This document shows, piece after piece, positions 39,402 to 57,389 of a DNA stretch of 64,000 nucleotides; position 1 is the stretch's first letter; every line of letters starts with the position of its first letter. Both the position numbers and the translations under genes were made by a program. The DNA is from a bacterium (GTDB lineage: Bacteria; Bacteroidota; Bacteroidia; Chitinophagales; Saprospiraceae), in contig JANSXW010000017.1 of assembly GCA_024742755.1 (NCBI GenBank), positions 2,847 to 66,846 on the forward strand, given 5' to 3'. The notes under the pieces are model-generated. The model was not told the DNA's origin. It saw only the letters and a list, made by a program, of their open reading frames with translations, and searched no databases.

Positions 39402-39411
39402 TAAACAAATA

Positions 39412-41289: not shown

Positions 41290-41298
41290 CCCCACAGT

Positions 41299-43542
41299 AT
41301 GCCCGATACTCACCAAACCACCTTTCTACCGCCTGAGCAAGAGCAGCCTCTCCTCAACGCACACCCTTATCTGCTTCACCTCCCCGGATTCCTCCTGCTT
41401 TCCTGTGGCCAAGTATGGGTCAGCCCCAGCTTGAAAGCAACCTACCCCGAGCTGGGCGAAGATTTCTCACTCCAGAAACTGACCCGGTTTCTGCCTGAGC
41501 ACCAACGCAGCAGTTTCCAATCCTTGCTCAGCGACAGATACCGGTTGCTGGCCGCTACATTTGACCAGAAAATTCCTTTGGAGCCCCCTTTGGACAATAC
41601 CATTCTGGGCATCCGGCAGTTGTTCTATCAGGGCAGCCCGAATTGGCTGGGCATCCTCTTTTCCACTCAAAAAACAGACCGCCCCCAGCATGAAATTCAG
41701 CCTGCCCCGCCGCTTTCACCCACTGACTTTGAGCGGCTTGAGCAATCTCAAAATATAGGTTTCTGGCAATTTGACCTGCAAAACCGGCAAGTCTATTTTT
41801 CAAACGCCATTTACCATATCCTGGGATATGAACCGGGTGAACTCTCCACCCCCCTTGAACTGATTGCATCTGATGACTACCACCTCATACGGGTCATTGT
41901 TGAAGCTATGGTTCAATCCCCTCCCACTCCAAACCATAGAGTAGAAGTTAAGTACAGGCACAAGTCTGGCCGGCTAACGCCTATTTTGTTCACCATTCAA
42001 CCTCATGGGCCTAAATACATGGGCACTTACCAAAGCGTGGAAGAACCTGTGGCCCTGCGCAATACCCTAAGGCAGGTGACCGAAGAGGCCGAGCAACGCT
42101 CAAAGCGGTTTAAAGTGCTATTTGATACCTTGCCCGAGATGGTCTTCATTGCCGATGCCGCAACTGGCATTATCCTCAACTGCAATCAAGCCGTAAAGCC
42201 CAAACTGGGCTATGAGCCGGAAGAGCTGATCGGGCAGCACCATACTATTATCTACCCCGAAGCAACAAGGGAACAAGTCAATAATGCATACAGGAAAGGA
42301 AAAAAGCCTGGTCCATTACAGGTCATACCGCTCAGGACCAAAGAAGGAGAAATTATTGAAACCCAGCCTTCAGAAACCGTCATTGATTACAACGGCATAC
42401 GAGCCAGGCTTGGCATCTTCTCTGACAAGACCAAACTGGTCAGAGCAGAACAAAAAGCAGAACGCCGGCAACGCCAATACAGGCAACTCGTCAAACATTC
42501 CAGCGACCTCATTACCATCAGCAACGGGGACCTGACCGTACAGTGGGCTTCTAACAATACCAAAGCGATATTGGGGTATGCCAAATCAGAACTACAGGGC
42601 TCCAAACTACTGGATTTAATACATCCCGAGGACCTCAAACCGGCCACAGACCTGATCCTGAACGCCCTGCAGGAAGCCGAGCCGGAATTTTCCTACACCG
42701 CCCGTTTCCGGCACAAGGATAACAGTTACCGATGGTTGCAAAACCATATTATCCGGACTACCGACGATGCCGGGCAGCCCATTGGCATTACCTACAGCCG
42801 GGACATTACTGCACAAATGGAACTACAGGAGAAAAGAGCGGAAATGGACCGCCTGAAGCAGGAATTTGTCTCTATGGCCAGCCATCAGCTCCGTACACCC
42901 ATGGCTGTATTCGCAGCCAACCTGGAAATGCTTGCAGAGACAGAAGAAGCACAATCCCCACTGATAAAGCGCATTCTGGCACGCATGGAAAGGGAGTCTA
43001 CCCGCATGGTGCGTCTGGTGGATGACGTGCTTGCAGTGAGCAGGCTCAATACCGAAGAGGAACTCCAAGTCAATAAAACGCCCATTGAAATAGTAAGCTT
43101 CCTGCGTGAGATCGTGGCTGATGAAGCTTTCTACTTTGATGAAGTGCCGATTGCCCTGCACACCGAACTACAACAAGGCACCGTAGAAGCCGATGAAGAA
43201 CAGTTGACCCATATCCTGCATAACCTGCTTTCCAATGCCATAAAATACTCCGAAAGGCGCGACCCCCCGGAGGTGCATGTCCGGCAAACGGCAGCAGGCA
43301 AGATTCAGGTAGACCTCAAAGACCACGGTGTGGGTATTCCTGAGGCAGACCTCCCAAAACTGTTCCAGCAGTTTCACCGGGCCTCCAATGTAAAAAAGAT
43401 TGCAGGGACCGGGCTGGGGCTGTATATTGCAAAACGGTTTACAGAGGCAAATGCCATCGAAATTGAGGTAGACAGCAAAGAGGATATTGGCACCACTTTC
43501 TCTTTGACTTTCAATCAAACAGGACATGCACAAACACAATGA
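41299..43542 (+). CDS. cytoplasmic PAS-domain histidine kinase (paralog 2)
   Basis: Three clear PAS domains, EFVSMASHQLRTP, NAIKY, DHGVG and GTGLGL. Confidence 0.92.
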   Translation: MPDTHQTTFLPPEQEQPLLNAHPYLLHLPGFLLLSCGQVWVSPSLKATYPELGEDFSLQKLTRFLPEHQRSSFQSLLSDRYRLLAATFDQKIPLEPPLDNTILGIRQLFYQGSPNWLGILFSTQKTDRPQHEIQPAPPLSPTDFERLEQSQNIGFWQFDLQNRQVYFSNAIYHILGYEPGELSTPLELIASDDYHLIRVIVEAMVQSPPTPNHRVEVKYRHKSGRLTPILFTIQPHGPKYMGTYQSVEEPVALRNTLRQVTEEAEQRSKRFKVLFDTLPEMVFIADAATGIILNCNQAVKPKLGYEPEELIGQHHTIIYPEATREQVNNAYRKGKKPGPLQVIPLRTKEGEIIETQPSETVIDYNGIRARLGIFSDKTKLVRAEQKAERRQRQYRQLVKHSSDLITISNGDLTVQWASNNTKAILGYAKSELQGSKLLDLIHPEDLKPATDLILNALQEAEPEFSYTARFRHKDNSYRWLQNHIIRTTDDAGQPIGITYSRDITAQMELQEKRAEMDRLKQEFVSMASHQLRTPMAVFAANLEMLAETEEAQSPLIKRILARMERESTRMVRLVDDVLAVSRLNTEEELQVNKTPIEIVSFLREIVADEAFYFDEVPIALHTELQQGTVEADEEQLTHILHNLLSNAIKYSERRDPPEVHVRQTAAGKIQVDLKDHGVGIPEADLPKLFQQFHRASNVKKIAGTGLGLYIAKRFTEANAIEIEVDSKEDIGTTFSLTFNQTGHAQTQ

Positions 43543-45781
43543 ACACCCGCACCATCAGGGGCACGCCCTGCTACGCTTACTCAATGATATGTACAGCGCC
43601 CCCGGTCAGTACGTCAGCCTGCTGTGCACCAACACCGGAAAGCACTTCTGGGATACCAACCTGGCGGAGCTTTTTACAGCCCGGCACGGGGAAGCAGAAA
43701 TCACAGATACCGCTGCATTATTGAAACAAATCAAACCGGAATACAGTGGAAAGGTGCAACGGCTGCTTAGCCCTGCCTCCACCGTGCACAACAAGCCTGT
43801 CAGCATTGAACTGAAGAATGGGCTACAGTTCACCGTGCGTAGTTTTCGGTATCAGGAAGGGGATACCCTTTTCCTGATTTTTGTGTGGGGCAAAACGAAG
43901 TGGGCTTCCAATTACGATGCCGGGCAGTTGGCGCATTACCCCATGTCCAGCGAGCTGTACGAGGAGCTGCTGGAAGTTTCCCTGGCTGGATTTTGGGACT
44001 GGAACATGGCGACCAATTACGAATACCTCAGCCCGCGCTTTAAAGCCATGTTTGGGTACGAGGACCATGAAATGGAAAACCATCCCAGTTCCTGGCAAAA
44101 ACTAATCTATCCGGAGGATGCGGAACAAGTGTTTGCAGAATTCGACAAACATGTCAAAAGTAAGGGGGAATACCCCTTTAGCGTACAAGCCCGGTACCAC
44201 CACCGAAATGGCGAAACCATCCATATCTTATGCAGTGGCCGGGTAACGGTATGGGGCGAAGACGGCAGCCCGCTCCGGGCAGTGGGTACTCATGTGGACA
44301 TTACCGAGCAGGTACGGATCAAAAAAGCGCTGGAGGAAGCGCAAATCGAATACCGCAACCTCATTAAGTATTCTTCTGATATTGTGGTGGTGACGAATGA
44401 GCAGGGCCATATCGACTGGGTCTCAGATAATGTAGAGGAACAACTGGGATATACGCCGGATATGGTCCGGCAGCACACCTTTTTCCTGAACTACCTGCAC
44501 CCCGATGACCAAAAACGGGTTTTGGCGGAGGTTACTTCTTTTGTCAGACGCAATGCGGAGGAAGGGGGCTACACCGCCCGGCTGATGACCAGGAGTGGCG
44601 CCGCCAGGTGGTATGAAGTTTTTCTGCATTTTTTCTACAACGATGAAGGACAGCTGGAACAGGTTTACAACTACTGCAAAGACATACACAAAGCGAAAAT
44701 CGCCAGTGATGCACTTGTTGCCCAAAAAGAAGAGTACGCTAATCTGATTGAGTACTCGGCTGATATTGTCGTGATCTATGATAGTCAATTCCGCATATCC
44801 TGGGTTTCCAACAATATTGAACACCGCTTTGGGTATAAGCCCGAGGAGGTCATTGGCCAATACCATTCTGCTTTTATCCCTCCGCAGCAAGAACAGGAAA
44901 TCGTCATCCTGTTTCAACAATGGATCAAAGACCGCGTTGAGACCGCCGAATACACTGGCTCTTTCAGGTTGAAGTCCGGAGAAATGCGCTGGTTTGATGT
45001 TTACCTCCGCTTTTTCTACGATGACCTCGGCCAGCCCACAAAGGTGATCAACTACTGTAAGGATATCCACGAACAGCGTAACGCGCAGCAGGAGCGGGAG
45101 GCTCTGAACCAGCTCAAAGCGGAATTTGTATCTATGGCCAGCCATCAGTTCCGCACTCCTATGGCCGTCTTTGCAGCCAACCTCGAAATGCTGCAGGGCA
45201 TGGAACAGGCAGAAGACCCACTGGTCAAACGGATACTGAACAGGATGGCCACAGAATCAGACCGGATGATCAAACTGGTGGACGATGTGCTCCTGGTCAG
45301 CAAAATGGATACCAAAGGCGAGACGACCGACCCTGAACTGGTCGACCTTATCCCCTTTGTGGAAAAACTCATTCAGCAGCTTAAGCCCGGGTTTGGCGAA
45401 CGGCACATACAGCTGGACACTGCCCTGGAATACGTAACCGTTAAAGCCGACCCTACCCAACTGGAGCATATCCTCAAAAACCTGATAGAGAATGCCATTA
45501 AATACTCTCCTGGTGCTGCCGACCCTGTCATTGCCATCTGGGATACGCCATCGGGCGAAGTACAAGCCACAGTAACCGATTTTGGCATGGGCATCCCCGA
45601 ACAGAACCTTGAGGGCTTGTTCCAGCAGTTTTACCGGGGAGATAATGTCAAAAATATCGTAGGCACCGGGCTGGGGCTTTACGTTGTCAAGCGGTTTGCA
45701 GAGCTGAACGACATCAGGGTAGAGGTGCGCAGTAAGCTCAAACAAGGCACCGTTTTCACCCTTACCTTTAAACCGGTTTAA
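43526..45781 (+). CDS. cytoplasmic PAS-domain histidine kinase (paralog 3)
   Basis: PAS_3 plus two duplicated PAS/PAC units, EFVSMASHQFRTP, NAIKY, DFGMG and GTGLGL. Confidence 0.92.
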   Translation: MHKHNEHPHHQGHALLRLLNDMYSAPGQYVSLLCTNTGKHFWDTNLAELFTARHGEAEITDTAALLKQIKPEYSGKVQRLLSPASTVHNKPVSIELKNGLQFTVRSFRYQEGDTLFLIFVWGKTKWASNYDAGQLAHYPMSSELYEELLEVSLAGFWDWNMATNYEYLSPRFKAMFGYEDHEMENHPSSWQKLIYPEDAEQVFAEFDKHVKSKGEYPFSVQARYHHRNGETIHILCSGRVTVWGEDGSPLRAVGTHVDITEQVRIKKALEEAQIEYRNLIKYSSDIVVVTNEQGHIDWVSDNVEEQLGYTPDMVRQHTFFLNYLHPDDQKRVLAEVTSFVRRNAEEGGYTARLMTRSGAARWYEVFLHFFYNDEGQLEQVYNYCKDIHKAKIASDALVAQKEEYANLIEYSADIVVIYDSQFRISWVSNNIEHRFGYKPEEVIGQYHSAFIPPQQEQEIVILFQQWIKDRVETAEYTGSFRLKSGEMRWFDVYLRFFYDDLGQPTKVINYCKDIHEQRNAQQEREALNQLKAEFVSMASHQFRTPMAVFAANLEMLQGMEQAEDPLVKRILNRMATESDRMIKLVDDVLLVSKMDTKGETTDPELVDLIPFVEKLIQQLKPGFGERHIQLDTALEYVTVKADPTQLEHILKNLIENAIKYSPGAADPVIAIWDTPSGEVQATVTDFGMGIPEQNLEGLFQQFYRGDNVKNIVGTGLGLYVVKRFAELNDIRVEVRSKLKQGTVFTLTFKPV

Positions 45782-45845
45782 AAATCTCAACTCCCCACTC
45801 ACCCTTTTCCATTGCCAAACGATAGTATAGGTAAAACAGCCACCT

Positions 45846-46409
45846 ATGCCAATTAGTGCTAAAAGTACGGACGAAGAGCTGCGGCAGGCCTGCCTCAAAG
45901 GCGACCGGCGGGCGCAGCAGGCGTTGTACCAAAAGTACTATGGCAAGCTATTGGGCATTCCTATGCGATATACCGGCAATCAGGCAGAAGCTAAAGACTT
46001 GCTGAACCAAGCATTCCTTCAGATTTTCAGAAGCCTGCCGGACTACACCGAGTCCGGCAGCTTTGCGGGGTGGATGTCTACCATCACCTTCCGGGTGACG
46101 ATGGACCACCTGCGCATGGAGCAACGCTACCGGGAGCGCTACAGCCTGGAAGTGCCGGACCGGTCCGCCATTGACAGCCGTATTGAGGGGCAGCTTGAGG
46201 CAGCCGATATCTTCCGCTGCATTCAGCAACTGCCCGATTATTTGCGTGTGGTATTCAGCCTGTACGTCATAGACGGCTACAAGCATCAAGAGATTTCCGC
46301 CATGATTGGCATTACCGAAGACACGAGCAAGTGGCGCCTGCGCAAGGCCCGTCAACTGCTGCAGGCTGCCCTGGAACAAGATTATTTAAACAACGATCAG
46401 TCGGCATGA
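45846..46409 (+). CDS. ECF (sigma-70 group 4) RNA polymerase sigma factor
   Basis: Region 2 (AQQALYQKY, AKDLLNQAFLQIF, SFAGWM) and region 4 (LPDYLRVVFSLYVIDGYKHQEISAMIGI..TSKWRL..AR). Confidence 0.95.
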   Translation: MPISAKSTDEELRQACLKGDRRAQQALYQKYYGKLLGIPMRYTGNQAEAKDLLNQAFLQIFRSLPDYTESGSFAGWMSTITFRVTMDHLRMEQRYRERYSLEVPDRSAIDSRIEGQLEAADIFRCIQQLPDYLRVVFSLYVIDGYKHQEISAMIGITEDTSKWRLRKARQLLQAALEQDYLNNDQSA

Positions 46410-47002
46410 AAGACGAAGCACAACAACCTTGGGAAGCAGAAGTGCGCCGGGTGGTCGAGACGCACGAATTTGACTACGACCCGGCAGCCTGGGCGGGCAT
46501 GGAAGAGCTGTTGGATAGCGCTCAGACCACCGCAGTTGGCAAGGCTGGAAGCTGGTGGGCCGGCGCCTGGAAGTGGTTGCTGCCTGCCGGATTGATAATG
46601 GCTGGGGGGATATGGTGGGTGATGAACCGCCCGGTGCCACCCTCTTTGCAGGGGAGCTTGCCGGTGCGTACCGGAAAAGAGGAGGTTCAGCCTGATAAAA
46701 ACAGGGAGGCTGATGCGATCCTTTCAGACCTGCCGGAAATGGAAGACACCTTTGACTCAGGCAGGACTTACACGGCGCCCGTCCAAAATATACCGGTTAG
46801 AAAGTTCCGTGCCATTGCCACTGCTGATCCTGATTTGCCTGCGGTACAGTTCGTCCTTCCACCGGAAGTGCCTCTGTTGCCTGCCCGTCCTCTCCCGAAG
46901 ACACTGGCCCCTATGACTGTAAAGAGAGAGCAACTGGAAATAGATTTTAAACGGAAGCGCAACCGAAAGTCGCTGTTCCCGGAAATTTTTGAATCCTATT
47001 AA
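46406..47002 (+). CDS. putative membrane-anchored anti-sigma factor
   Basis: ATGA overlap with the sigma gene. N-terminal FDYDPAAWAGMEELLD helix, one TM segment (WKWLLPAGLIMAGGIWWV) and a Pro-rich disordered tail. Confidence 0.65.
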   Translation: MKDEAQQPWEAEVRRVVETHEFDYDPAAWAGMEELLDSAQTTAVGKAGSWWAGAWKWLLPAGLIMAGGIWWVMNRPVPPSLQGSLPVRTGKEEVQPDKNREADAILSDLPEMEDTFDSGRTYTAPVQNIPVRKFRAIATADPDLPAVQFVLPPEVPLLPARPLPKTLAPMTVKREQLEIDFKRKRNRKSLFPEIFESY

Positions 47003-47026
47003 GGCTGTTGATAAAGACGTTTTGCT

Positions 47027-47734
47027 ATGAGAAAATGCCAATTGTTGCTCTGTTTCATTCTTTTCTCCCTTGTGGGGTTTAGCCAGGACGCGCCCTTATC
47101 CAGATGGACAATGGGGCTGGAAACCGGGCTCAACTTCAGGGTAAGCTGCCCGAATTGCCCTTTTTTTGGCCATGATTACCTGGCAGATGCGGTACCGGTT
47201 GCGGCACGTACTTCTTACCGGTTGTTGTCGTGGTTAAGCATGGAAGGCGCAGTTAGCTATCAGGCCGCGCGGTACAGCCAACTGGCGGGGCTCAATTCGG
47301 GCTCGGATGTTTATGACCTGGCTTTTCGCCTGCCAGCGTTGCACTCCACTGTAGGGCCGAGGGTTCAACTCCGGATCGGACAGGGCGATCTGGGGCTGGA
47401 ATACCGTATGGGGCTGCTCACTTATACTCAATCGGTACAAGCACAAAACAGTGCAGGGTATGCTCAACGCTTCAGCTACGACTGGCAAACCGCTATTGCA
47501 GAAGCCTGGCGCCTAAGCTATACGTACTGGCCAGCTGCCCGCATTGCCGTATCCATCAACTACGAGTTGTTCACTTCACGGAGTGGGGAATACCTGAACC
47601 TTGATGCCCGGTCGGCTAAACGTCTATCCGGTAATAGCCACCTGCGAGGTGCCCTGCAGCCCCCCAGCGATACATTTTACTTTGACAACTTTCATTTTTC
47701 TAATCTTCTGATAGGGATCCACTATCGGCTGTAA
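47027..47734 (+). CDS. small outer-membrane beta-barrel, type A (module 1)
   Basis: Signal peptide, SRWTMGLETGLNF, CPNC loop, RIGQGDLGLEYR, AWRLSYTYW and terminal IGIHYRL. Confidence 0.65.
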   Translation: MRKCQLLLCFILFSLVGFSQDAPLSRWTMGLETGLNFRVSCPNCPFFGHDYLADAVPVAARTSYRLLSWLSMEGAVSYQAARYSQLAGLNSGSDVYDLAFRLPALHSTVGPRVQLRIGQGDLGLEYRMGLLTYTQSVQAQNSAGYAQRFSYDWQTAIAEAWRLSYTYWPAARIAVSINYELFTSRSGEYLNLDARSAKRLSGNSHLRGALQPPSDTFYFDNFHFSNLLIGIHYRL

Positions 47735-47742
47735 ATGCGTGA

Positions 47743-48477
47743 ATGATGAAAAGATATCTATTCTTCCTACTGTCGATAACTACCCTTTTTTATACCCGTC
47801 CGATCTTTGCCCAGGCAGCACTCTCCGGCGGGCTACGCCTTCAGGTTCAGGCACCCGTTGTACATTGGCTGCAATTTGGGCAAGGCTCGGGGGCTGAGGT
47901 ATGGATAGCCCTCCCATTGTCCACAAACAATAGCCTCGAATTTTCGCTAGGCTACCTGCATTTAAGCGGCTACGATAATGGGTTGGTTACCATCAACGAA
48001 ATCACTGCTCCTTTGGAGTACTGGCGAACCAACGAGAATTTAGAACTTAACGGCCTGACATTCTTCTCAGCGGCTATAAGCCATGAGTATCAACTTACTA
48101 CTGATAGCCGGGGGTCGGTCGGGACAGGTATCCGTTTTTCCAGGCTAATTCGCTCGGAAGGTTATCAGAAAAGCTATGAGCAATACCGCGTGTACCGAAT
48201 CTCGACATATCCATCCGCAGACCTTCTCAATGTTGATATAAACCAAAATTATCAAGCCAGATTCTACAATGGTTTCGCCTCCACCCTTAATGAGGAGCAG
48301 TTGAATCTTTACGACTTGGGGCTGACTATTGCACTAAGGTATAGGCTTATCAAAGGCTTAGTCGCAGAGGCCAGCATTTACCAGGGTTTGCTCAACAGAT
48401 GGAGTGACAATTATAATGATCTGAAGGCGCTGTACATCACCTCATTCTCCCTGGGTCTTTCTGCCCGCATTTTTTAA
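47743..48477 (+). CDS. small outer-membrane beta-barrel, type B (module 1)
   Basis: Signal peptide ending IFA-Q, GQGSGAEVW, YDLGL, EASIYQGLLNRW and terminal SLGLSARIF. Confidence 0.65.
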   Translation: MMKRYLFFLLSITTLFYTRPIFAQAALSGGLRLQVQAPVVHWLQFGQGSGAEVWIALPLSTNNSLEFSLGYLHLSGYDNGLVTINEITAPLEYWRTNENLELNGLTFFSAAISHEYQLTTDSRGSVGTGIRFSRLIRSEGYQKSYEQYRVYRISTYPSADLLNVDINQNYQARFYNGFASTLNEEQLNLYDLGLTIALRYRLIKGLVAEASIYQGLLNRWSDNYNDLKALYITSFSLGLSARIF

Positions 48478-48488
48478 ACCTTAGCATA

Positions 48489-49202
48489 ATGAAACAAATA
48501 ATACGATTACTGTCGGTTCTATGTATCGTTTCCTGCCAGAAACCCGACGTAGAGGTTCGGGTTACCCAAGAAAAGGCCGACTTCTATTTCCGGTTTGAGG
48601 TAAAAGACACGGTATCCGAGGACTATCAATACGTAGATTACACGCTGGGGGATTCCATATGGATATCTGACCACCGCGACTCTAGCTACCATTATCTCAC
48701 CTGGCGCAACGAACTTGAAGACATCAACGGTATCTACTATTTTCAAACAGGATTATCGGATATGCGTTTCTATTCGCCGCATACCGGAAGTGTTTTTGGA
48801 TTTGGTTTTTCGATCCCCGGTTTAGAGCCAGGCAAAATCCCTACCCTAGAAATGGTTGAAGGCTTTTTCTATCCGGGACGCAGTATACCCTTTGGCTTAG
48901 GGCCTGAAAAGGTGAATGCCCTCCTAAGATTACCGATTGGCAACCCTGCCTTTCTTCTTGCTTCGCAAACGGTATTTCTCTATGAACCTTACGGCGAGCT
49001 GAACATCAAAAAGATAGAGGAATACACAATGCAATATCGCAGTTTGCCCGAAGAAGTGCTCAGGGGCAAACGCATTACCTGTGTCTTTGAAGGAGGCATT
49101 GGGATATATAAACCACAACCCTCTGTAGATGCTGTTTCTTATACCGATGTTGCCATTGATTTACGAAACGGGAAAGCAGTATTCTTCATTCCATACGAGT
49201 AG
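48489..49202 (+). CDS. surface lipoprotein L1 (module 1)
   Basis: Lipobox IVSC followed by QKPD (lipoprotein export signal-like). C-terminus ITCVFEGGIG...LRNGKAVFFIPYE. Confidence 0.7.
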   Translation: MKQIIRLLSVLCIVSCQKPDVEVRVTQEKADFYFRFEVKDTVSEDYQYVDYTLGDSIWISDHRDSSYHYLTWRNELEDINGIYYFQTGLSDMRFYSPHTGSVFGFGFSIPGLEPGKIPTLEMVEGFFYPGRSIPFGLGPEKVNALLRLPIGNPAFLLASQTVFLYEPYGELNIKKIEEYTMQYRSLPEEVLRGKRITCVFEGGIGIYKPQPSVDAVSYTDVAIDLRNGKAVFFIPYE

Positions 49203-49233
49203 GCCATTAGATACGCACCAAAAAATATGAGTT

Positions 49234-49896
49234 ATGTCAAGACTATCCCTATTTACCATACTGCTTTCTCTGCCAGCCTTTGGGTTGTTCGCCCAGCCTG
49301 TTTCCTTCGGGCTTACGCCGAGGCTGATCGCACCGGTCGTCACCGACGCTAAAATCGGTCAGGGCTGGGGGGCAGAAGCCTGGTCCAAAGCCGAAATCGG
49401 CCCCGGTAATGGACTAAAGTTGAAATTGGGCTACCAGCAAATTGGTGATTACAACAGCGCGGTGGAAACGAAGCGCACCTATGTTTTTCCAGACCGCACC
49501 ATTAGGCAAACTGAGTCCGCAAGGATAAAGGGACTGGAAACCTGGTATGTGGACCTCTCTTTCTGGCAGTATACCTGGGACATCAAAAGCCGATGGTCCT
49601 TTGAGCTGGGGGCTCGGTACAGTTTTTCCACTCAGGCCCGGGGGCCGTATGAATTAAGACAATCCCTAAGTTTTGGATCAGGGCGGTTCAGCAGCGGGGG
49701 CTTTGGTGAAGAGATGCTCAGGGGGCATGACTTCGGGCTCCACCTCTCCGGCGCATTTGAGCTATTCGATGGTTGCTGGCTGGAAGCACAGGCTTATCAG
49801 GGTTTCCTCAATCAATGGAGGGATTTCGAGGATTTTGAAGGCCCCACTGTTTACGTCACTACGCTATCTGCCGGACTGGCTTTCCGGCTGTTTTAA
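49234..49896 (+). CDS. small outer-membrane beta-barrel, type C (module 1)
   Basis: Signal peptide ending LFA-Q, GQGWGAEAW, RGHDFGL, EAQAYQGFLNQW and terminal SAGLAFRLF. Confidence 0.65.
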   Translation: MSRLSLFTILLSLPAFGLFAQPVSFGLTPRLIAPVVTDAKIGQGWGAEAWSKAEIGPGNGLKLKLGYQQIGDYNSAVETKRTYVFPDRTIRQTESARIKGLETWYVDLSFWQYTWDIKSRWSFELGARYSFSTQARGPYELRQSLSFGSGRFSSGGFGEEMLRGHDFGLHLSGAFELFDGCWLEAQAYQGFLNQWRDFEDFEGPTVYVTTLSAGLAFRLF

Positions 49897-49909
49897 AATC
49901 AAATCCATC

Positions 49910-50608
49910 ATGAAAAACTTATTCCACTTTTCACTGGTATTCGTGATTGTTGCGCTCGCTTTAGGCTGTAAAAAGGAACCACCCCTGATCAGCTACGAAG
50001 AAGTCTATGTATCCCCTGTTTACACCCAGTTTGAGTTTAGGGATACAAGCCGGGTAGACTTTGTATTACAAGAGTACCGCTTAGGCAGTTATCTGGAAGA
50101 TGAAACACCACGCTACAGTTGGGACACATGGGATAAAGTGACAAGCCGGGGCCCTGCCATTCTTGTAGATATCATGCAGCATGGGCCATGGTCTACAACT
50201 ACTTTATTTGGCATGGAGTTTTGGGCTCAACCCGCCGTGGAAAAGCCTTGGACGGAGGCCCATCTCAGAGAGATGTTTGCAAGCGGGAAGGTATTTCCTT
50301 TTGGAGAAGGCCCAGGCAAAGTAGATGTTGGCTTTCAGGTTAATGAGCCTTTCGTCTTTAGCGATGAGCGCTCGAAGGCTTCTTACTTGAAAGAGCCTGT
50401 AGGGCAGTTGGAAATTACCCGGTCTGAAAATTACAGTTATACTCCACCAAACAGAGCGACAGTATATGGCTTACTGTTGCACTGTAAATTTACCGGCGAA
50501 CTGGGGCAATATGACTTCAGGTATACACCATGGGATGATGGTTTCAGCACAGAGGTAAGTGTAGAGATTAAGAATGGGGAAGCCACTTTTTTTGTCGCTT
50601 ACCGATGA
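49910..50608 (+). CDS. surface lipoprotein L2 (module 1)
   Basis: Start moved to MKNLFHF. Lipobox ALGC-KKE. C-terminus LLLHCKFTGELG...IKNGEATFFVAYR. Confidence 0.7.
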   Translation: MKNLFHFSLVFVIVALALGCKKEPPLISYEEVYVSPVYTQFEFRDTSRVDFVLQEYRLGSYLEDETPRYSWDTWDKVTSRGPAILVDIMQHGPWSTTTLFGMEFWAQPAVEKPWTEAHLREMFASGKVFPFGEGPGKVDVGFQVNEPFVFSDERSKASYLKEPVGQLEITRSENYSYTPPNRATVYGLLLHCKFTGELGQYDFRYTPWDDGFSTEVSVEIKNGEATFFVAYR

Positions 50609-50689
50609 CGGTACTGAAGAGCGCTTTCGGAAGTATTTACGGATCAGGATAAGCCGCTGCTCCAATTTTCTCAACAAAACCACCGTGCG

Positions 50690-51409
50690 ATGAAAAACTT
50701 ACATCTAACAGCCCTCATACTCTTACTGCCCCTCCTGGGGTACAATCAGGAAGCTTCTAAGTCCCGCTGGACATTAGGCGTGGAAACCGGCTTCAACTTT
50801 GTGACCGACTGCCTGGTGTGCAGCGCTAATCAACACCACAACAATACGCTACCTTATGCCATCCGGGCAGAGCACCGCATTTTCCGGTGGTTGAGCCTGC
50901 AATTCAGCCTGGGCTATTTCAACACCACCCACGACCGCTTAACCTCAACAGAATTCGGATTAAGTTTGGCAGAACATGCTTCCGCTGATCTTTCCTTCCG
51001 GCTCCCAACTGCCACTGCAACCATTGGCCCCCGGCTTCAAATCCGCATTGGGCAGGGTGACCTGGGGTTGGAATACAGGAGTGGCCTGCTTACCCAAACC
51101 CTTCAGGTACAGGCTGCCGAATTTAACGGGCGGTCCTATGCATTTCAACATGGCTGGACCGCTGCCCGCGCTCAGGCCTGGCGGCTGAGTTATACCTACT
51201 GGGCCACGAAGCAACTGGCCATTTCAATAAACGGCGAGACCCTCAGCGCATGGAATCTTGGCTACCCAGAGTTGAAAGGCGACCTCAGCAGCCTGCTACC
51301 AGAATCGCCTTACCTGCATAGGCTATTCAGTGATCCTGATCGGTACATGGGCCTGGTGGACTACTTCTGGATATCGATGATAACGATTGGTGTTCACTAC
51401 CGGATTTAA
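50690..51409 (+). CDS. small outer-membrane beta-barrel, type A' (module 2)
   Basis: Paralog of 47027: SRWTLGVETGFNF, CLVC, RIGQGDLGLEYR, AWRLSYTYW and IGVHYRI. Confidence 0.68.
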   Translation: MKNLHLTALILLLPLLGYNQEASKSRWTLGVETGFNFVTDCLVCSANQHHNNTLPYAIRAEHRIFRWLSLQFSLGYFNTTHDRLTSTEFGLSLAEHASADLSFRLPTATATIGPRLQIRIGQGDLGLEYRSGLLTQTLQVQAAEFNGRSYAFQHGWTAARAQAWRLSYTYWATKQLAISINGETLSAWNLGYPELKGDLSSLLPESPYLHRLFSDPDRYMGLVDYFWISMITIGVHYRI

Positions 51410-51410
51410 A

Positions 51411-52139
51411 ATGAAAAACCTAATGACAATGAGAAAGTATCTAATATTTTCCATGCTATGCGTTGCCCTCTGCGCTAATGCTCAAACTTCCGGTGTAAGG
51501 GTAGACGCAGCACTACCCTTCACGGAATCCTTTCAGCCAGGTGCCGGCAGCAGCGCCGAATGGTGGGTAAACTGGCCCATAGGAGACCACCGACAAATCC
51601 ATATGGCACTGGGCGTACAACACTATGCGGGCTATCAAGGCGGCATAATAGAACACCATAGCCAGTATGGTCCTACGGAGCTTCTTATCAGTAATAGTCA
51701 ATTGGAGCTTAATGCCCTCACTTTTGCCACTCTGCAAGCTGGCTACCGCTGGGAAAAAGAAAGCAGATGGGCATGGACACTGGCCGCCCGGGCGGGGTAT
51801 CAATTCCATAGCGAAGGCTTTACAACCAGCCAGCAACGGTGGTATTCATTTAGGCGAAACAGCCGGGACCCATTGGTTCCGGAGCTGTTCCCGGAACTGA
51901 AAATAAAGGAATTCAACGGCAACCGCAGCAGCCGGGGCAGCAACTTCACTGTAAACGATCATCTCCGGCGATATGATGCCGGACTTTTAGCAAGCCTACA
52001 CTATCGAATTACGGAGGGACTGGAGGCTGAAGCCGCCTATTATCAAGGCTTGTTCAATCAATGGAAATTGGAATCGGAGAATCCGCCGGTACTGAGGGTT
52101 GCAGCTCTCTCTTTTGGTCTTTCTCTTCGTCTTTTTTAA
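51411..52139 (+). CDS. small outer-membrane beta-barrel, type B' (module 2)
   Basis: Paralog of 47743: GAGSSAEWW, LELNALTF, YDAGL, EAAYYQGLFNQW and SFGLSLRLF. Start at 51411 or 51429. Confidence 0.65.
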   Translation: MKNLMTMRKYLIFSMLCVALCANAQTSGVRVDAALPFTESFQPGAGSSAEWWVNWPIGDHRQIHMALGVQHYAGYQGGIIEHHSQYGPTELLISNSQLELNALTFATLQAGYRWEKESRWAWTLAARAGYQFHSEGFTTSQQRWYSFRRNSRDPLVPELFPELKIKEFNGNRSSRGSNFTVNDHLRRYDAGLLASLHYRITEGLEAEAAYYQGLFNQWKLESENPPVLRVAALSFGLSLRLF

Positions 52140-52152
52140 AAATAGCTCCATC

Positions 52153-52872
52153 ATGAAATATGTATACTTACTCCTTTTTCTCCCACTTATCGCCTGTCAA
52201 AAAGAAGCCGTTGAGGTCCGAAACACCGTAGAAACGGCGCCCTTTTATTTTCGGCTGGAAGTACGGGATACTATGCATGAAGCCTTCCAGCCCGTCAATT
52301 ATGGCCTGGGCGAGATTATTCATATATACGATCCGACTTACGAAACGGAATACACGTTTCCACTCATCTGTGACCAGAACCTGGTGTATCGCGGGGAGCA
52401 GTTAGTATTACAGACAGGTATGTACTCGGGAGACTATAGCTATTTCGGTCGGGAAACCCCCTTCTTTGGGATCGAGTTTGCCCTACCTGGCCTACAGCCC
52501 GGCCTAATGCCTACCCGGGAAGCAGTAGAGCAATTCTTCTATGCCGGCCGCACCTTTGAGGCGGGCATTGGACCAGATAAAGCCAACTTGCTGATGCGCA
52601 TGCAAATTGATAATCCGGTGATGGTTGTCCCTTCTCAATCCATCTACCTTTACGAACCGACCGGCACACTAACCATCACTGGAGTAGAAGACTATACCTA
52701 TGAATTTCAGATGGAGCCCAAAGGTATATTGCAAGGTAAACGAATCACCTGTCAATTTGAAGGAGCAATCGGACGTTTTCAGGCCGGTATGCCCAGAGAT
52801 GAGTTTCCTTTAACTGATGTCGCAGTGGAAATCCAAAACGGGGAGGCGGCTTTTTTCGTCCAATACAAATAA
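52153..52872 (+). CDS. surface lipoprotein L1' (module 2)
   Basis: Start moved to MKYVYL. Lipobox LIAC-QKE. Paralog of 48489 (FYFR.EV.DT, PGL.PG..PT, YLYEP.G, GKRITC.FEG, NG.A.FF..Y). Confidence 0.72.
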   Translation: MKYVYLLLFLPLIACQKEAVEVRNTVETAPFYFRLEVRDTMHEAFQPVNYGLGEIIHIYDPTYETEYTFPLICDQNLVYRGEQLVLQTGMYSGDYSYFGRETPFFGIEFALPGLQPGLMPTREAVEQFFYAGRTFEAGIGPDKANLLMRMQIDNPVMVVPSQSIYLYEPTGTLTITGVEDYTYEFQMEPKGILQGKRITCQFEGAIGRFQAGMPRDEFPLTDVAVEIQNGEAAFFVQYK

Positions 52873-53088
52873 GTAAAGCCAAAAGAGCTACTACTACGTT
52901 AAGACAAATCAAACGGATTGTCTCAATCAGGCTAAATCGAATGACAAGACACATACTACGGTTAGGCCAGTCGGTTAAACTGTTAGATAAGACCGTGCTG
53001 CTTCTTCGGGCCTATTTGGTATTCAAATGAATGCACAGCCCTGAACAATGTCAGATAAAAGCCTTATTTTTAGCAGAAAGCCTAAGCT

Positions 53089-53724
53089 ATGAAGCAACTG
53101 CCCGCTCTTTTGCTGCTGCTCTTCGGCTCTGTCCCTGTAGTCGCCCAATCTTTTTCCGCCGGCTTGTCTCCCCGCCTGATGGCTCCCATCGTTACGGATG
53201 GAACAGTAGGGCAGGGATGGGGCGCAGCGGTATGGTCGAGGGTAGAGCTGAACAATGGCAAAGGCCTGGCACTACAGTTGGGATGGCAGGAGATCCGTGG
53301 CTACAACAGCGCGGTGGAAATTCTGGATACCCGGGTGCTACCGGAGGGGAGCATCTCTTGGCTTGAAGAAACAGCCCGGTTGAAGAGATTACAGATGTGG
53401 CAAATCGACCTCTCTTTCTGGCAAAAAGCCTGGAACGGGAACAGCCCCCTGACTTTGGAAGCGGGCGTGCGCTACAGCTTCGGCGTAACGGGTACCGGGA
53501 CGTACCAATTCAGGAATATTTACAGTATTGGAGGGGCTACAACGGTCAGTAGCCGGAGCCTGGGGGAAGAAGTGCTCCGGGGCCACGATTTGGGTATTCG
53601 GATTGCCGCCCATTACAAATTACAGGAAAGGCTTTCACTAGAAGCAGAAGCTTATCAGGGCTTTCTTAATCAATGGAAAGACTTTGAAGGCTTTACAGGG
53701 CCTGTTGGTCCACTGCTCTTTTGA
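53089..53724 (+). CDS. small outer-membrane beta-barrel, type C' (module 2), lacking its last strand
   Basis: Paralog of 49234 (APIVTD...GQGWG, GYNSAVE, RGHDLG, EAYQGFLNQW.DFE) but ends GPVGPLLF instead of ...LSAGLAFRLF. Confidence 0.65.
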   Translation: MKQLPALLLLLFGSVPVVAQSFSAGLSPRLMAPIVTDGTVGQGWGAAVWSRVELNNGKGLALQLGWQEIRGYNSAVEILDTRVLPEGSISWLEETARLKRLQMWQIDLSFWQKAWNGNSPLTLEAGVRYSFGVTGTGTYQFRNIYSIGGATTVSSRSLGEEVLRGHDLGIRIAAHYKLQERLSLEAEAYQGFLNQWKDFEGFTGPVGPLLF

Positions 53725-53839
53725 GGGCAAACTGGGGCTGTACGATCCGGCGCTGACTCCTGTAACAGAGCACTTCAAAACGGACGCAGCGTTAACTCTT
53801 AAAAATGGGACAGCTGCCTTTTTGGTCGCGTATGAGTAA
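53699..53839 (+). pseudogene. 3' remnant of lipoprotein L2' (not in the ORF track)
   Basis: The +1 frame reads GLLVHCSFEGKLGLYDPALTPVTEHFKTDAALTLKNGTAAFLVAYE*, matching the L2 C-terminus GLLLHCKFTGELGQYD...IKNGEATFFVAYR. Confidence 0.85.
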
Positions 53840-54046: not shown

Positions 54047-54054
54047 TACTTTTG
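54047..54054 (+). promoter_or_regulatory. sigma-A -7 box (TACTTTTG)
   Basis: TAnnTTTG 27 bp before the ATG at 54081. Confidence 0.6.
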
Positions 54055-54080: not shown

Positions 54081-54875
54081 ATGAGAAACTGCCTTTTCCT
54101 TTTATTCTTTGTGCCCACCTTCCTTTCTGCCCAGGTGGTCAATACCGAAAAGCTCCGTTCCACCAATGAAGACGGCTGGCTGGCGGAAGCGGGGCTGGAT
54201 TTTGGGCTCACCCGCAACAAAGCCGGTCAAACCCTTAGCCTGGGCAGCCGCCTAAGGCTGGAATACGATACGGGCAAAAGCCGGTGGATGCTGCTCGGCG
54301 CCTACAACCTCACCCAATTCAGAAATGTGGAAGACCCGGGCAGCGTGCCCCGCAATTTCGCCAACAATGCCTTCGGGCACCTGCGGTACAACTACGTCGC
54401 TAATGACTGGCTGACCTGGGAAGCCTTTACACAATTCCAATACGACCAGATCCAGCAAATAGATGCGCGGGTGCTGACCGGTACCGGCCCCAGAGTGAAA
54501 CTGCTGCGCACCGATAGCAGCCAGCTGTTTTTTGGGCTGCTGTACATGTATGAGCACGAAGCCTCCACGGATGTTTTCGAAGTGCCGGAAGAACGCAGCG
54601 TGAACGTCTTCCTGTATGACCACCGCCTGAGCGCCTACCTGTCCGGTGGTTTCCAAATCACGGAGACCTTCAACATCAACCACGTCACCTATTTCCAGCC
54701 TAACCTGGCGGACTTTAGCGACTTCCGGATTTCCTCCGAAACGAGTTTAACCTTCAAAATCAGTGAAAAACTGGCGTTTCGGACCTATTTCCAGCTGATG
54801 TATGACGAGCGCCCGCCCATACCGGTCCCCAATACAATGTACGTGCTAAATAACGGGCTTGAAATCGATTTATAG
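54081..54875 (+). CDS. DUF481 family outer-membrane beta-barrel protein
   Basis: Signal peptide ending LSA-Q-VVNTE, FGHLRYNY, WEAFTQFQYD, GTGPR, TYFQP..DFSDFRIS and NGLEIDL. Confidence 0.8.
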   Translation: MRNCLFLLFFVPTFLSAQVVNTEKLRSTNEDGWLAEAGLDFGLTRNKAGQTLSLGSRLRLEYDTGKSRWMLLGAYNLTQFRNVEDPGSVPRNFANNAFGHLRYNYVANDWLTWEAFTQFQYDQIQQIDARVLTGTGPRVKLLRTDSSQLFFGLLYMYEHEASTDVFEVPEERSVNVFLYDHRLSAYLSGGFQITETFNINHVTYFQPNLADFSDFRISSETSLTFKISEKLAFRTYFQLMYDERPPIPVPNTMYVLNNGLEIDL

Positions 54876-54941
54876 ATTACGGTTTTCGTCTTGGGTTTCT
54901 TTATATTTACAGTTGATTACTTTGAATGCACCCTTACAAAT

Positions 54942-57389
54942 ATGCCTCGAGAAAGCTACTACTTAGAGACAGAGCTACTGTCTTACTTTTCTGACAACCC
55001 CGAGCTGTTCCAATTCATTGAGCAAGCATCAGCAGATGGCATTTGGTACTGGGACCTGACACAACCGGAGGAAGAGTGGATGAATGAACAATTCTGGCAC
55101 ACCCTGGGGTACCCGCCGGAATCCATGGAACATACCCCTGCTTCCTGGCAGCAGCTCGTACACCCCGATGACCTTCCAATTGTACTGGCAGATGCAAAAC
55201 GGGCACTTAAAGACCCTGTGTATAAATTTGAACGGGAGGTCCGGTATCGCCATCACAAAGGGTACTGGGTCAAGATGCGCTGCTTTGGTGTTGTACTGAA
55301 AGACAAACAAGGGCTTAGCACGCGCATGCTCGGCGGGCACCGGTACCTGGGTGCTGTTCCGGAAGGGAAAGGCCAACAGTTGCCGCACGATTTTCTCAGC
55401 CATTTGCTGCCCAACCTGCCGGGCGCCTCTTATAAATACCGGCTCTACCCGGATGGAAGCGATGAGTTTTCCTTTCTCAGCCCGGAGATAAAAGCGTGGT
55501 TTGGCATTCCAGCAGAAACGGAGGTCATTAAGCACACCGATGGTATTTGGAAAGCCATTCATCCTGAAGACACAGTTATGCTGGAAACAGCCATACAACG
55601 CTCAGCGGATCAGTTGAGCCTTTTTCAGCTGGAATGGCGGTTAATCACTCCCTCCGGCGTAAAGTGGCTCAGCACAACTGCTCAGCCTCATAAAAACCAG
55701 GACGGTAGTGTGGAATGGTACGTCTTTGTAAGCGATGTTACCGATCGTAAAGAAGCGGAAGCCGCTCTGCGCACACAGCTTCACATGCAGGAAGCCTTAC
55801 GGAAAATTTCCACACAGCATATCAGTCAGCCACTGGAAGATGCCGATGTGACCATCAATCAGGCTCTGGGCATCATCGGCCGATTCGTAAACGCAGACCG
55901 GGTCTATATTTTTGATTACGACTTCAGGCAGCAAACCACCAGCAACACGTACGAGTGGTGCGCGGAGGGCATCGAACCTGAAATTGACAACCTGCAGGAT
56001 GTCCCCATGAGTTTCTTCCCGGACTGGCTGACCGCACACCTTAACAATGAGGTCATGCATATCCCAAATGTACAGGAGCTGCCTCAGAATATGCTTCGTG
56101 AAGTCCTGGAGCCCCAGGGCATCAAAAGCCTGTTGGCAGTCCCTATGTATCAGGGCGACCGATGCGCTGGCTTCGTTGGTTTTGATTCTGTAAAGAACTA
56201 CCACGTTTACAGCAAGCAGGAAATGGAGTTCCTCCGCCTTTCCGCTCAGGTGCTGGTCAATATACTCACCTACACGGAAGAGCGGGTCAAACTGATAAAC
56301 AGCAAACAGGAACTCCAAAAACTCACCCAAAATGTACCGGGCGCAATCCTGAAGCTACAGATAACGCCTGAAGGCAAATTCTCTGTGCCTTTCCTTAGTG
56401 AGGGCGCCCGAAGGCTGATCCCCAATTTGAATATCGAGGAGGTGCAAAACAACCTCGAAGAGCTGCTGTTCCATATCTATCATGAAGACCTGAGCGCCTT
56501 TTACCACAACCTCCTGATCTCATCGGAAAAACTATCCAAGTTTTACATGGAGTACCGGGTCCGCACCACTGAAGACACCATCCGCTGGCACCGTATCGAT
56601 ATGCGCCCCGAGCAGGAAGCCAATGGTGTAATTGCCTGGTACGGCATTGTGCTCGATGTTTCCGATCAAAAGGAAATAGAACAAATCAAACATCAGCACC
56701 GGGCACTCAAAGACAAGTACAACGAAGTGGAGAATTTTGCCTTTATCGCCTCCCACGACCTGAAAGAGCCTCTGCGCACCATCAGCAGTTTCAGCCGGCT
56801 ACTTTTGCGGCAGTATCAGAACAAACTGGACGATAACGCCAAAGAATACCTGCAGTTTATCACTGATGGCAGCGTCCGGATGAGTAAACTCATTGATGGC
56901 CTGCTGGAATTCAGCCGTCTGGGCAGGAACCGTACTCAGGAAACGGTCGACTGCCAGGCTATGGTAGGTGAGATCCTCTCGGACTTTGATACCGTACTTC
57001 AGGAATCAGGAGCTATGATAAAATTTGCAGGCCTGCCTACCATACAGGGATATACAATGGAACTCCGGCAGCTTTTCCAGAACCTGATCAGCAACGCGAT
57101 CAAATTCAGGAAGCAAGACCAAATACCGGAGGTGGAAATCAACGCCCGGCGCCAGGAGAAAGCCTGGTTATTTGAAGTCAAAGACAATGGTATCGGCATC
57201 CCGGAAGAGCATCAGGAGCGCATCTTTGAAATATTCAGCCGCCTGCACAGCCGGCAGGATTACGAAGGTACGGGCATTGGGCTGGCCAACTGCAAAAAAA
57301 TTGTGGACCTCCACAACGGCGATATTTGGGTGGAATCTACACCCGGAGCGGGCAGCAGCTTTTTCTTTACGATTCCTGTTGAGCAGTAA
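54942..57389 (+). CDS. PAS/GAF multi-sensor histidine kinase (SHDLKEP type)
   Basis: PAS_3 domains, GAF (ADRVYIFDY, EWCAEGIEP, SLLAVPM, GFVGFD), H-box ASHDLKEPLRTI, and NAIKF, DNGIG and GTGIGL. Start moved to MPRE. Confidence 0.93.
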   Translation: MPRESYYLETELLSYFSDNPELFQFIEQASADGIWYWDLTQPEEEWMNEQFWHTLGYPPESMEHTPASWQQLVHPDDLPIVLADAKRALKDPVYKFEREVRYRHHKGYWVKMRCFGVVLKDKQGLSTRMLGGHRYLGAVPEGKGQQLPHDFLSHLLPNLPGASYKYRLYPDGSDEFSFLSPEIKAWFGIPAETEVIKHTDGIWKAIHPEDTVMLETAIQRSADQLSLFQLEWRLITPSGVKWLSTTAQPHKNQDGSVEWYVFVSDVTDRKEAEAALRTQLHMQEALRKISTQHISQPLEDADVTINQALGIIGRFVNADRVYIFDYDFRQQTTSNTYEWCAEGIEPEIDNLQDVPMSFFPDWLTAHLNNEVMHIPNVQELPQNMLREVLEPQGIKSLLAVPMYQGDRCAGFVGFDSVKNYHVYSKQEMEFLRLSAQVLVNILTYTEERVKLINSKQELQKLTQNVPGAILKLQITPEGKFSVPFLSEGARRLIPNLNIEEVQNNLEELLFHIYHEDLSAFYHNLLISSEKLSKFYMEYRVRTTEDTIRWHRIDMRPEQEANGVIAWYGIVLDVSDQKEIEQIKHQHRALKDKYNEVENFAFIASHDLKEPLRTISSFSRLLLRQYQNKLDDNAKEYLQFITDGSVRMSKLIDGLLEFSRLGRNRTQETVDCQAMVGEILSDFDTVLQESGAMIKFAGLPTIQGYTMELRQLFQNLISNAIKFRKQDQIPEVEINARRQEKAWLFEVKDNGIGIPEEHQERIFEIFSRLHSRQDYEGTGIGLANCKKIVDLHNGDIWVESTPGAGSSFFFTIPVEQ

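Follow-up and report, generated by a model that had tools for sequence, protein, structure and literature searches.

What does an extracytoplasmic-function (ECF) sigma factor govern when its gene heads an array of small outer-membrane barrels and lipoproteins, and do these envelope proteins only answer to the sigma factor or do they also report to its anti-sigma factor? The locus that raises this question lies at positions 45846-53839 of a 64-kb window, by which we mean the whole stretch of Saprospiraceae DNA analysed here. It comprises 12 elements in a single orientation, in the order sigma, anti-sigma, A, B, L1, C, L2, A', B', L1', C' and an L2' remnant, all of which were confirmed at the positions given in a first-pass annotation made from the same DNA. 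Behind the two regulators stand three envelope families, the barrels A (two copies) and B/C (four copies) and the lipoprotein L (three copies and the remnant), and an L gene lies directly 3' of each B/C barrel (4/4), as the annotation had also described. What it overlooked is a five-gene core, a parallel to the Dma family of anti-sigma factors, and swaps of outer-membrane alleles between strains with near-identical sigma factors.

The conserved unit and its divergence among relatives

Relatives of the locus were found with an alignment of the sigma factor as query. A genome collection gave 16 loci with a sigma factor at least 60% identical, from Phaeodactylibacter and from metagenome-assembled genomes (MAGs) of Lewinellaceae, Saprospiraceae and unclassified Bacteroidota, in which the genes were called with hidden Markov models of each family. 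The anti-sigma gene is followed by A in all 16 loci, B is present in all 15 that extend far enough, and L occurs in 11, with the contigs of two loci ending before the position of L. The same gene order recurs in Logan, ENA and JGI contigs (JGI metagenome contigs agree where they are long enough), and Logan contigs with distant L homologues (20-30% identity) encode a sigma factor of 187 aa, an anti-sigma factor of 196 aa, an A of 244 aa, a B of 239 aa and an L of 253 aa. Where the sigma factor is only 30-41% identical, the loci have no A, B or L and encode anti-sigma factors of other types. By gene content, the conserved unit consists of five genes: sigma, anti-sigma, A, B and L. The smallest form of this cassette holds a single A-B-L, and it is expanded in Phaeodactylibacter. 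The array of P. xiamenensis reads A-B-L-C-L-C'-L', that of another MAG A-B-L-B-L-A-B-L-A, and a further one (L025) A-B-B-L-B-A-B-L-L. The adjacency of barrel and lipoprotein genes, to which the first-pass annotation had drawn attention in the window, is therefore conserved in other genomes as a rule with exceptions, some of them being cassettes without L.

The outer-membrane part of this unit diverges sharply where the regulator stays constant. Compared with the window, the Phaeodactylibacter MAG locus L013 has a sigma factor of 93% identity and an anti-sigma factor of 47%, but an A of 27%, a B of 29% and L proteins of 26-29%, and in locus L014 a sigma factor of 91% identity stands beside an A of 34-38%, a B of 36% and an L of 41-48%. 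Outside the array, the kinase and DUF481 genes of L014 retain 82-97% identity, and the outer-membrane alleles of the two loci are as distant from those of the window as alleles from other families are (L008: sigma 66%, A 27%). Such divergence next to a constant sigma factor indicates that the outer-membrane part was exchanged or diversified at a fixed locus, and variable envelope genes beside a constant regulator suggest exposure to phage, grazers or a host. A literature search found no paper describing this cassette.

The first gene (45846-46409; all features given here lie on the forward strand) encodes a 187-aa protein that contains sigma regions 2 and 4 only, within the ~180-200 aa typical of ECF (sigma-70 group 4) factors, with matches to PF04542 (E = 3e-12), PF08281 (E = 4e-11) and PF07638 (E = 2e-8). 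It scores 79.4 bits against TIGR02937 (cutoff 42.9) and stays below the cutoff of the Bacteroidetes-type NCBIfam models TIGR02985 (72.8 versus 126.4) and NF058625 (70 versus 130), and across the cassette loci it is 60-94% identical. In 18 of 19 loci the sigma start is preceded, at a distance of 18-28 nt, by a bipartite motif, CT(A/C)ACCC-N15-CGATAGTA, whose 15-nt spacer is constant and which is kept even where the sigma factor is only 60-66% identical. In the window it takes the form CTCACCC-N15-CGATAGTA (45798-45827), 18 nt 5' of the sigma ATG. There is one copy per locus and one in the whole window, and searches before A', C' and the DUF481 gene gave no extra copies. We read this motif as a putative autoregulated ECF promoter.

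The sigma and anti-sigma genes share a 4-nt ATGA overlap, and the gaps from the anti-sigma gene onward to C' measure 24, 8, 11, 31, 10, 81, ~0, 13 and 216 nt, the widest being those 5' of A' (81 nt) and 5' of C' (216 nt). The housekeeping -7 motif of Bacteroidota has the consensus TAnnTTTG; none occurs in any gap of the array, and the sole one, at 54047, falls in the gap before the DUF481 gene. A generic scan for sigma-70 promoters and terminators stayed at shuffle expectation. Taken together, a promoter-like motif only 5' of sigma, tight gaps and the absence of an internal -7 motif point to one ECF-headed unit, as the first-pass annotation had supposed, and the simplest reading is that a single predicted transcript runs through sigma and the whole array, the DUF481 gene being transcribed separately. 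The 216-nt gap before C' (52873-53088) has a counterpart of 86-90% identity immediately 3' of L2 in P. xiamenensis. It contains no ECF motif and no TAnnTTTG and may be an internal promoter, an RNA element or a spacer.

The anti-sigma factor and its outer-membrane neighbours

The anti-sigma factor (46406-47002, 198 aa) is a single-pass protein that matches no Pfam or NCBIfam domain. In an alignment of 16 orthologues (19 were identified), the N-terminal ~45 residues, a helix region, are conserved and are followed by one hydrophobic segment at about residues 50-73 and by an unconserved periplasmic tail of 110-130 aa, which in the window comprises 120 aa with 13% proline and 30% charged residues. 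The protein is devoid of a folded periplasmic domain. Its last ~15 residues are conserved again, with the consensus KRKRNRKxLFP(D/E)(V/I)xxY, and in 16/16 aligned orthologues the protein ends after this peptide. The putative sigma-binding region is assigned by gene context, namely the overlap with the sigma gene, together with the conservation of residues 1-45.

The closest described system is the Dma family of anti-sigma factors, each of which joins, in one polypeptide, an anti-sigma domain and a transmembrane helix via a long disordered tether to an 8-stranded OMP_b-brl_2 barrel at the C-terminus; Dma proteins partner with ECF21 sigma factors and are restricted to Bacteroidota (PMC10927553; PMC13088901). 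The present cassette is similar in that a Bacteroidota ECF sigma factor is co-transcribed with its anti-sigma factor (here by prediction), in that this anti-sigma factor has one transmembrane helix and a long disordered periplasmic tether, and in its association with a small outer-membrane barrel, probably of the OMP_b-brl type. It differs in that the anti-sigma factor ends in the conserved 15-aa peptide, with no barrel fused to it. Since no barrel is on the same polypeptide, the protein is not a Dma member. Instead, probable PF13568/PF13505-type barrels are the next two genes after the anti-sigma gene, so that two distinct free-standing barrels with their own signal peptides and a lipoprotein are encoded separately, and these outer-membrane genes are duplicated and hypervariable. 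A Dma-type anti-sigma factor of 540 aa with a C-terminal PF13568 match (E = 4e-9) was found in Rufibacter sediminis (L045:9530-11152), where the sigma factor is 32% identical to that of the window. Our locus and those of sigma relatives, one of which encodes a true Dma, have an AACC(C)TTT -35-like element in common; in the Rufibacter locus the upstream -35-like element GCAACCTTTGG resembles the CTCACCCTTT of the window.

Barrel A (47027-47734, 235 aa) carries a signal peptide and is probably a divergent PF13505-type protein: 7 of the 21 members of its family match PF13505 (E < 0.01; best E = 4e-7), and the motifs RIGQGD and SYTYW are invariant, being kept across alleles that are 20-30% identical. 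In the family of barrel B (47743-48477, 244 aa), 7 of 36 members match PF13568 and 5 of 36 match PF13505 at the same threshold. A profile comparison of A with B (hhalign) detected no relation between the two families. Searches of the window proteins against Pfam, NCBIfam, PADLOC and PHROGs returned only the sigma factor, weak outer-membrane-barrel matches and DUF481, and the window barrels remain below the Pfam gathering scores, with B' matching PF13568 at E = 3.4e-5 and 24.4 bits (gathering score 27) and the others giving no match. The AlphaFold2 (AF2) model of B (pLDDT 84.9) retrieves Ail, NspA, OmpX and the OmpA transmembrane domain with a Foldseek probability of 1.0 and a TMt of 0.5-0.6, a score normalised to targets of ~150 aa, and larger barrels score worse. 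Among PDB sequences, a profile of 36 B sequences finds only Opa60 (E = 6e-4), and the same search with A and with L found nothing. The family Pfam matches and the model of B indicate that A and B are probably divergent members of the small-barrel superfamily (PF13505/PF13568, MBB clan) rather than proteins without a family. The first-pass annotation had recognised no named family for any of the envelope proteins and had suggested Foldseek as a check; its statement holds for L, which has neither a family nor a structural relative, and probably fails for A and B, given the Pfam matches of their members and the match of the B model to Ail, NspA, OmpX and OmpA. Its separation of B and C into two types also had to be given up, as both belong to one family.

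Compared to the Ail/OmpX-type proteins, with which B shares its fold and A and B share the weak Pfam and PDB sequence matches, B is longer (mature length ~200-220 aa versus ~150 aa) and has much longer hairpins, and A and B sit in an ECF operon. B exceeds OmpX by ~70 residues, and its DSSP strands span 26-32 residues whose central parts lack a membrane-type alternation, which suggests long protruding hairpins. Variation among the orthologues of the first B copy (B1) is concentrated in the hairpin at residues 139-180. Whether it has 8 or 10 strands, B as modelled is too small for a lipoprotein to pass through it.

Lipoprotein L1 (48489-49202, 237 aa, lipobox VSC) belongs to a family that consists of lipoproteins in every member examined, forms 53 clusters at 50% identity among 1.84 billion representative proteins and has nearly all of its full-length members between 218 and 253 aa. 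A third, word-indexed round of homologue searching that started from 49 L sequences brought in no more than four distant members. The AF2 model of L1 (pLDDT 82.5, pTM 0.79) is all-beta with one helix; Foldseek gave no match to it below E = 0.1 in PDB (best E = 0.18) or below E = 0.01 in BFVD (best E = 0.014), the Pfam, NCBIfam, PADLOC and PHROGs searches gave none to L, and tblastn of L1 against plasmids was likewise empty. A 5446-aa protein (P0052) that matched the L profile is a giant repeat adhesin, and the match was judged spurious, resulting from summed repeats. The four L copies of the genome all sit in this locus. After the lipobox cysteine, the window proteins continue C-QKPDVE, C-KKEPPL and C-QKEAVE, and a lysine at +3 and an acidic residue at +4 are common in the family. 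This partly resembles the lipoprotein export signal (LES) of Bacteroidota, whose minimum, established by experiment, is K-(D/E)2 or Q-A-(D/E)2 at about +3 to +5 (PMC5080379).

Trees of B and L fall into matching clades (B1 with L1, B' with L1', C/C' with L2/L2'), and the B1 and L1 clades have an identical internal topology. The mirrored trees indicate that B-L pairs were duplicated and inherited as units, in line with the diversification by duplication that the first-pass annotation had proposed.

Sensor part or regulon output

How might these parts work together? We tentatively favour, at somewhat less than an even chance, an envelope module that resembles a Dma in split form and whose outer-membrane parts can be interchanged, encoded in one autoregulated ECF operon. 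Here, the 120-aa Pro-rich tether of the anti-sigma factor would cross the periplasm and its conserved basic C-terminal peptide would dock on the co-encoded outer-membrane proteins, most likely on the more conserved barrel A, which is the best candidate because RIGQGD and SYTYW are invariant across such divergent alleles. Each B barrel and its cognate L might form an outer-membrane complex that makes up the variable, probably outward-facing part, with B as partner or anchor of L and not as its exporter. A disturbance of the outer-membrane proteins would then free the tail for proteolysis, release the sigma factor and thereby raise the whole operon. An extension of this scheme, which we consider unlikely, is a modular surveillance system: swappable surface barrel-lipoprotein pairs would serve as baits or decoys for phages, grazers or algal-host factors, the peptide would plug into a conserved face of the alleles, and an attack would free the tail and fire the sigma factor. 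This would account for a sigma factor that is 91-93% conserved beside A, B and L genes replaced by alleles of 26-48% identity within one genus.

Several points weigh against the split module. The docking of the peptide on A, B or L is purely conjectural, and hhalign comparisons of the anti-sigma factor, A and B with the Rufibacter Dma-type protein gave probabilities below 4%, which is not significant. Three loci (L020, L021 and L043) contain sigma, anti-sigma, A and B but no L, and L is therefore not essential to the core. Mirrored trees would also be expected from plain tandem duplication of linked genes, whether or not their products interact. DSSP alone leaves the strand number of B at either 8 or 10. 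Finally, the strict LES is absent from 3/3 window L proteins and present in 1 of 65 family members, so that of the QK/KKE export-type signals seen by the first-pass annotation a partial resemblance is left, the strict K-(D/E)2 being missing from the three window proteins; L may face the cell surface or the periplasm.

The sensing of the outer membrane by Dma-type anti-sigma factors is not yet understood: the Dma papers of 2024 and 2026 propose the barrel as its route and show no signal (PMC10927553; PMC13088901). If the split module is real, a natural two-piece Dma would offer a ready-made genetic dissection in which the tail, each barrel and the lipoprotein could be removed or swapped separately, and this would be feasible in a cultured, non-pathogenic marine bacterium. 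The contrast of a conserved regulator with hypervariable outer-membrane parts also marks the latter as likely targets of phage, grazers or hosts in algae-associated Saprospiraceae, and with L comes a family of lipoproteins that can be modelled confidently but has no structural relative among solved proteins.

Alternatively, and in our estimate with a lower though still appreciable chance, A, B and L are output only, that is, the regulon of the sigma factor and an inducible outer-membrane coat or remodelling set, while the anti-sigma tail senses, for example, general envelope damage or a protease. The predicted co-transcription with sigma from one conserved promoter fits this view, as do the fast allele turnover and copy-number change, which are typical of surface antigens, and the dispensability of L in some cassettes. 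A comparable arrangement is the BT1927-BT1926 gene pair of B. thetaiotaomicron, in which the lipoprotein is about twice as large as L and its gene precedes that of the barrel. Such protective pairs of a lipoprotein and a small barrel are known in Bacteroidota, where the phase-variable S-layer lipoprotein and OmpA barrel pairs of B. thetaiotaomicron protect against phage and complement (10.1101/521070). Compared by description, BT1927-BT1926 and its seven paralogous loci resemble our array as paired outer-membrane lipoprotein and small-barrel genes in multiple paralogous copies within Bacteroidota, but are switched by invertible promoters and recombinases and not by an ECF sigma factor (10.1101/521070). 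An overview of the window, which included no dedicated check for a BT1927/BT1926-type system, brought up neither a recombinase nor long inverted repeats close to the locus. A pure output role is harder to reconcile with three observations: in the loci examined A and B always accompany this sigma/anti-sigma pair, the anti-sigma factor has no folded sensor domain while its conserved terminal peptide needs a conserved partner, and A retains its invariant motifs across alleles of 20-30% identity. Sequence cannot settle the choice between a sensor part and output only.

A further reading, also offered by the first-pass annotation, takes the pairs for two-part receptors or adhesins; we hold it to be improbable, and it overlaps with both the split module and the output-only reading. 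Here, B would anchor a surface L whose ligand might be an algal host surface, a polymer or a nutrient, the paralogues would differ in specificity and the ECF factor would merely induce them. The resemblance of B to the adhesin-type proteins Ail, OmpX, NspA and Opa60, with long protruding hairpins, the diversification of paralogues, and the partly LES-like lysine at +3 and acid at +4 after the lipidated cysteine (PMC5080379) are consistent with such a role. Against it, a ligand-binding domain could not be recognised, L is without structural relatives, the L sequences fall short of the strict LES, and no transporter or enzyme genes are linked to the array.

The first-pass annotation had named first the idea of dedicated translocation pairs like Slam (DUF560, Neisseria), whose 14-stranded barrel is much larger and comes with a periplasmic TPR domain, and the adjoining of an outer-membrane barrel gene and a lipoprotein gene is indeed common to both systems. 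We regard it as highly improbable that each B/C barrel exports its adjoining lipoprotein to the surface: although the order B then L is strict in most loci and the pairs were co-duplicated, B is far smaller, its top structural matches are 8-stranded pore-less barrels of ~150 aa, it matches no DUF560, TPR or periplasmic domain, A and B occur in some cassettes without L, and Bacteroidota have a general LES-dependent export of surface lipoproteins (PMC5080379), so that the B/C barrels are not Slam members and probably not analogues either.

History of the array and neighbouring genes

Paralogy within the array far exceeds chance. In pairwise BLAST comparisons, A and A' are 39% identical (E = 9e-56), B and B' 30% (E = 3e-34), B and C 30% (E = 2e-24), C and C' 49% (E = 7e-66), L1 and L1' 43% (E = 1e-63) and L1 and L2 29% (E = 1e-16). 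Barrel C (49234-49896, 220 aa) and lipoprotein L2 (49910-50608, 232 aa) fall, by BLAST and tree, into the C-type clade of the B family and the L2-type clade of the L family, respectively. They are followed by barrel A' (50690-51409, 239 aa; A family by BLAST), barrel B' (51411/51429-52139, ~236-242 aa; B family by its sub-cutoff PF13568 match and tree) and lipoprotein L1' (52153-52872, 239 aa; by BLAST and tree).

The history of the array was traced by blastn of the window against the P. xiamenensis locus L011. The first-pass annotation had taken the second half of the array for a copy of the first module; instead, A'-B'-L1' is a clean 2.3-kb presence/absence cassette that lies between L2 and C', with boundaries at 50613 and 52951, and is absent from P. 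xiamenensis. At the end of the array, a deletion of ~615 bp relative to P. xiamenensis took the 3' end of C' together with the larger part of L2'. Its junction lies at 53694-53703, where 10 bp align to both sides. As a result, barrel C' (53089-53724, 211 aa) is truncated and lacks the last strand and the beta-signal, and L2' is a remnant of the last 46 codons (53699-53839) in the +1 frame relative to C'. Overall, B-L units and an A-B-L unit have been duplicated, lost and exchanged. The G+C content is 0.46-0.49 over B-L1-C-L2 (48000-50500), compared with 0.54-0.56 in sigma and anti-sigma and ~0.51 in the flanks.

Downstream of the array, a 264-aa DUF481 outer-membrane barrel is encoded at 54081-54875 (PF04338, E = 1e-23; 84.9 bits versus a gathering score of 21.1). 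Such a gene lies downstream of the cassette in 10 loci of the genome collection, in L005-L007 and in the window, which together represent two clades, and it is a conserved neighbour, probably with its own transcription unit. In L013 (7665-9416) a DUF481 homologue of 78% identity is contained in a much longer open frame of ~580 aa, which could reflect either a fusion or a wrong start site set when open reading frames were called. Further out, three tandem PAS histidine kinases (39349-45781) lie upstream and a PAS-GAF kinase (54891-57389) downstream. Synteny of these kinases, at 79-92% identity, extends to several Phaeodactylibacter loci (L005, L011, L014). Other genera lack them beside the cassette, so that the system probably does not include them.

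Other arrangements were seen among more distant sigma relatives. In two Flavobacteriales MAGs (L026:9547-10593 and L030:9541-10596; sigma ~40% identical), an anti-sigma-like N-terminus and a transmembrane segment are followed by PKD and by a CHU_C domain of the type 9 secretion system (T9SS), the latter with E = 1e-10 to 3e-13. An inner-membrane-anchored anti-sigma factor with a T9SS sorting signal would be another route to the outer membrane or cell surface. In L028 (9551-11242) and L039 (9012-10838), sigma and an anti-sigma factor of 231-266 aa precede a signal-peptide protein of 327-341 aa that has no Pfam match and ends in ...NAFSFGVTF, a barrel-like beta-signal. Sigma/anti-sigma pairs followed by free-standing barrels may thus be a wider theme in Bacteroidota.

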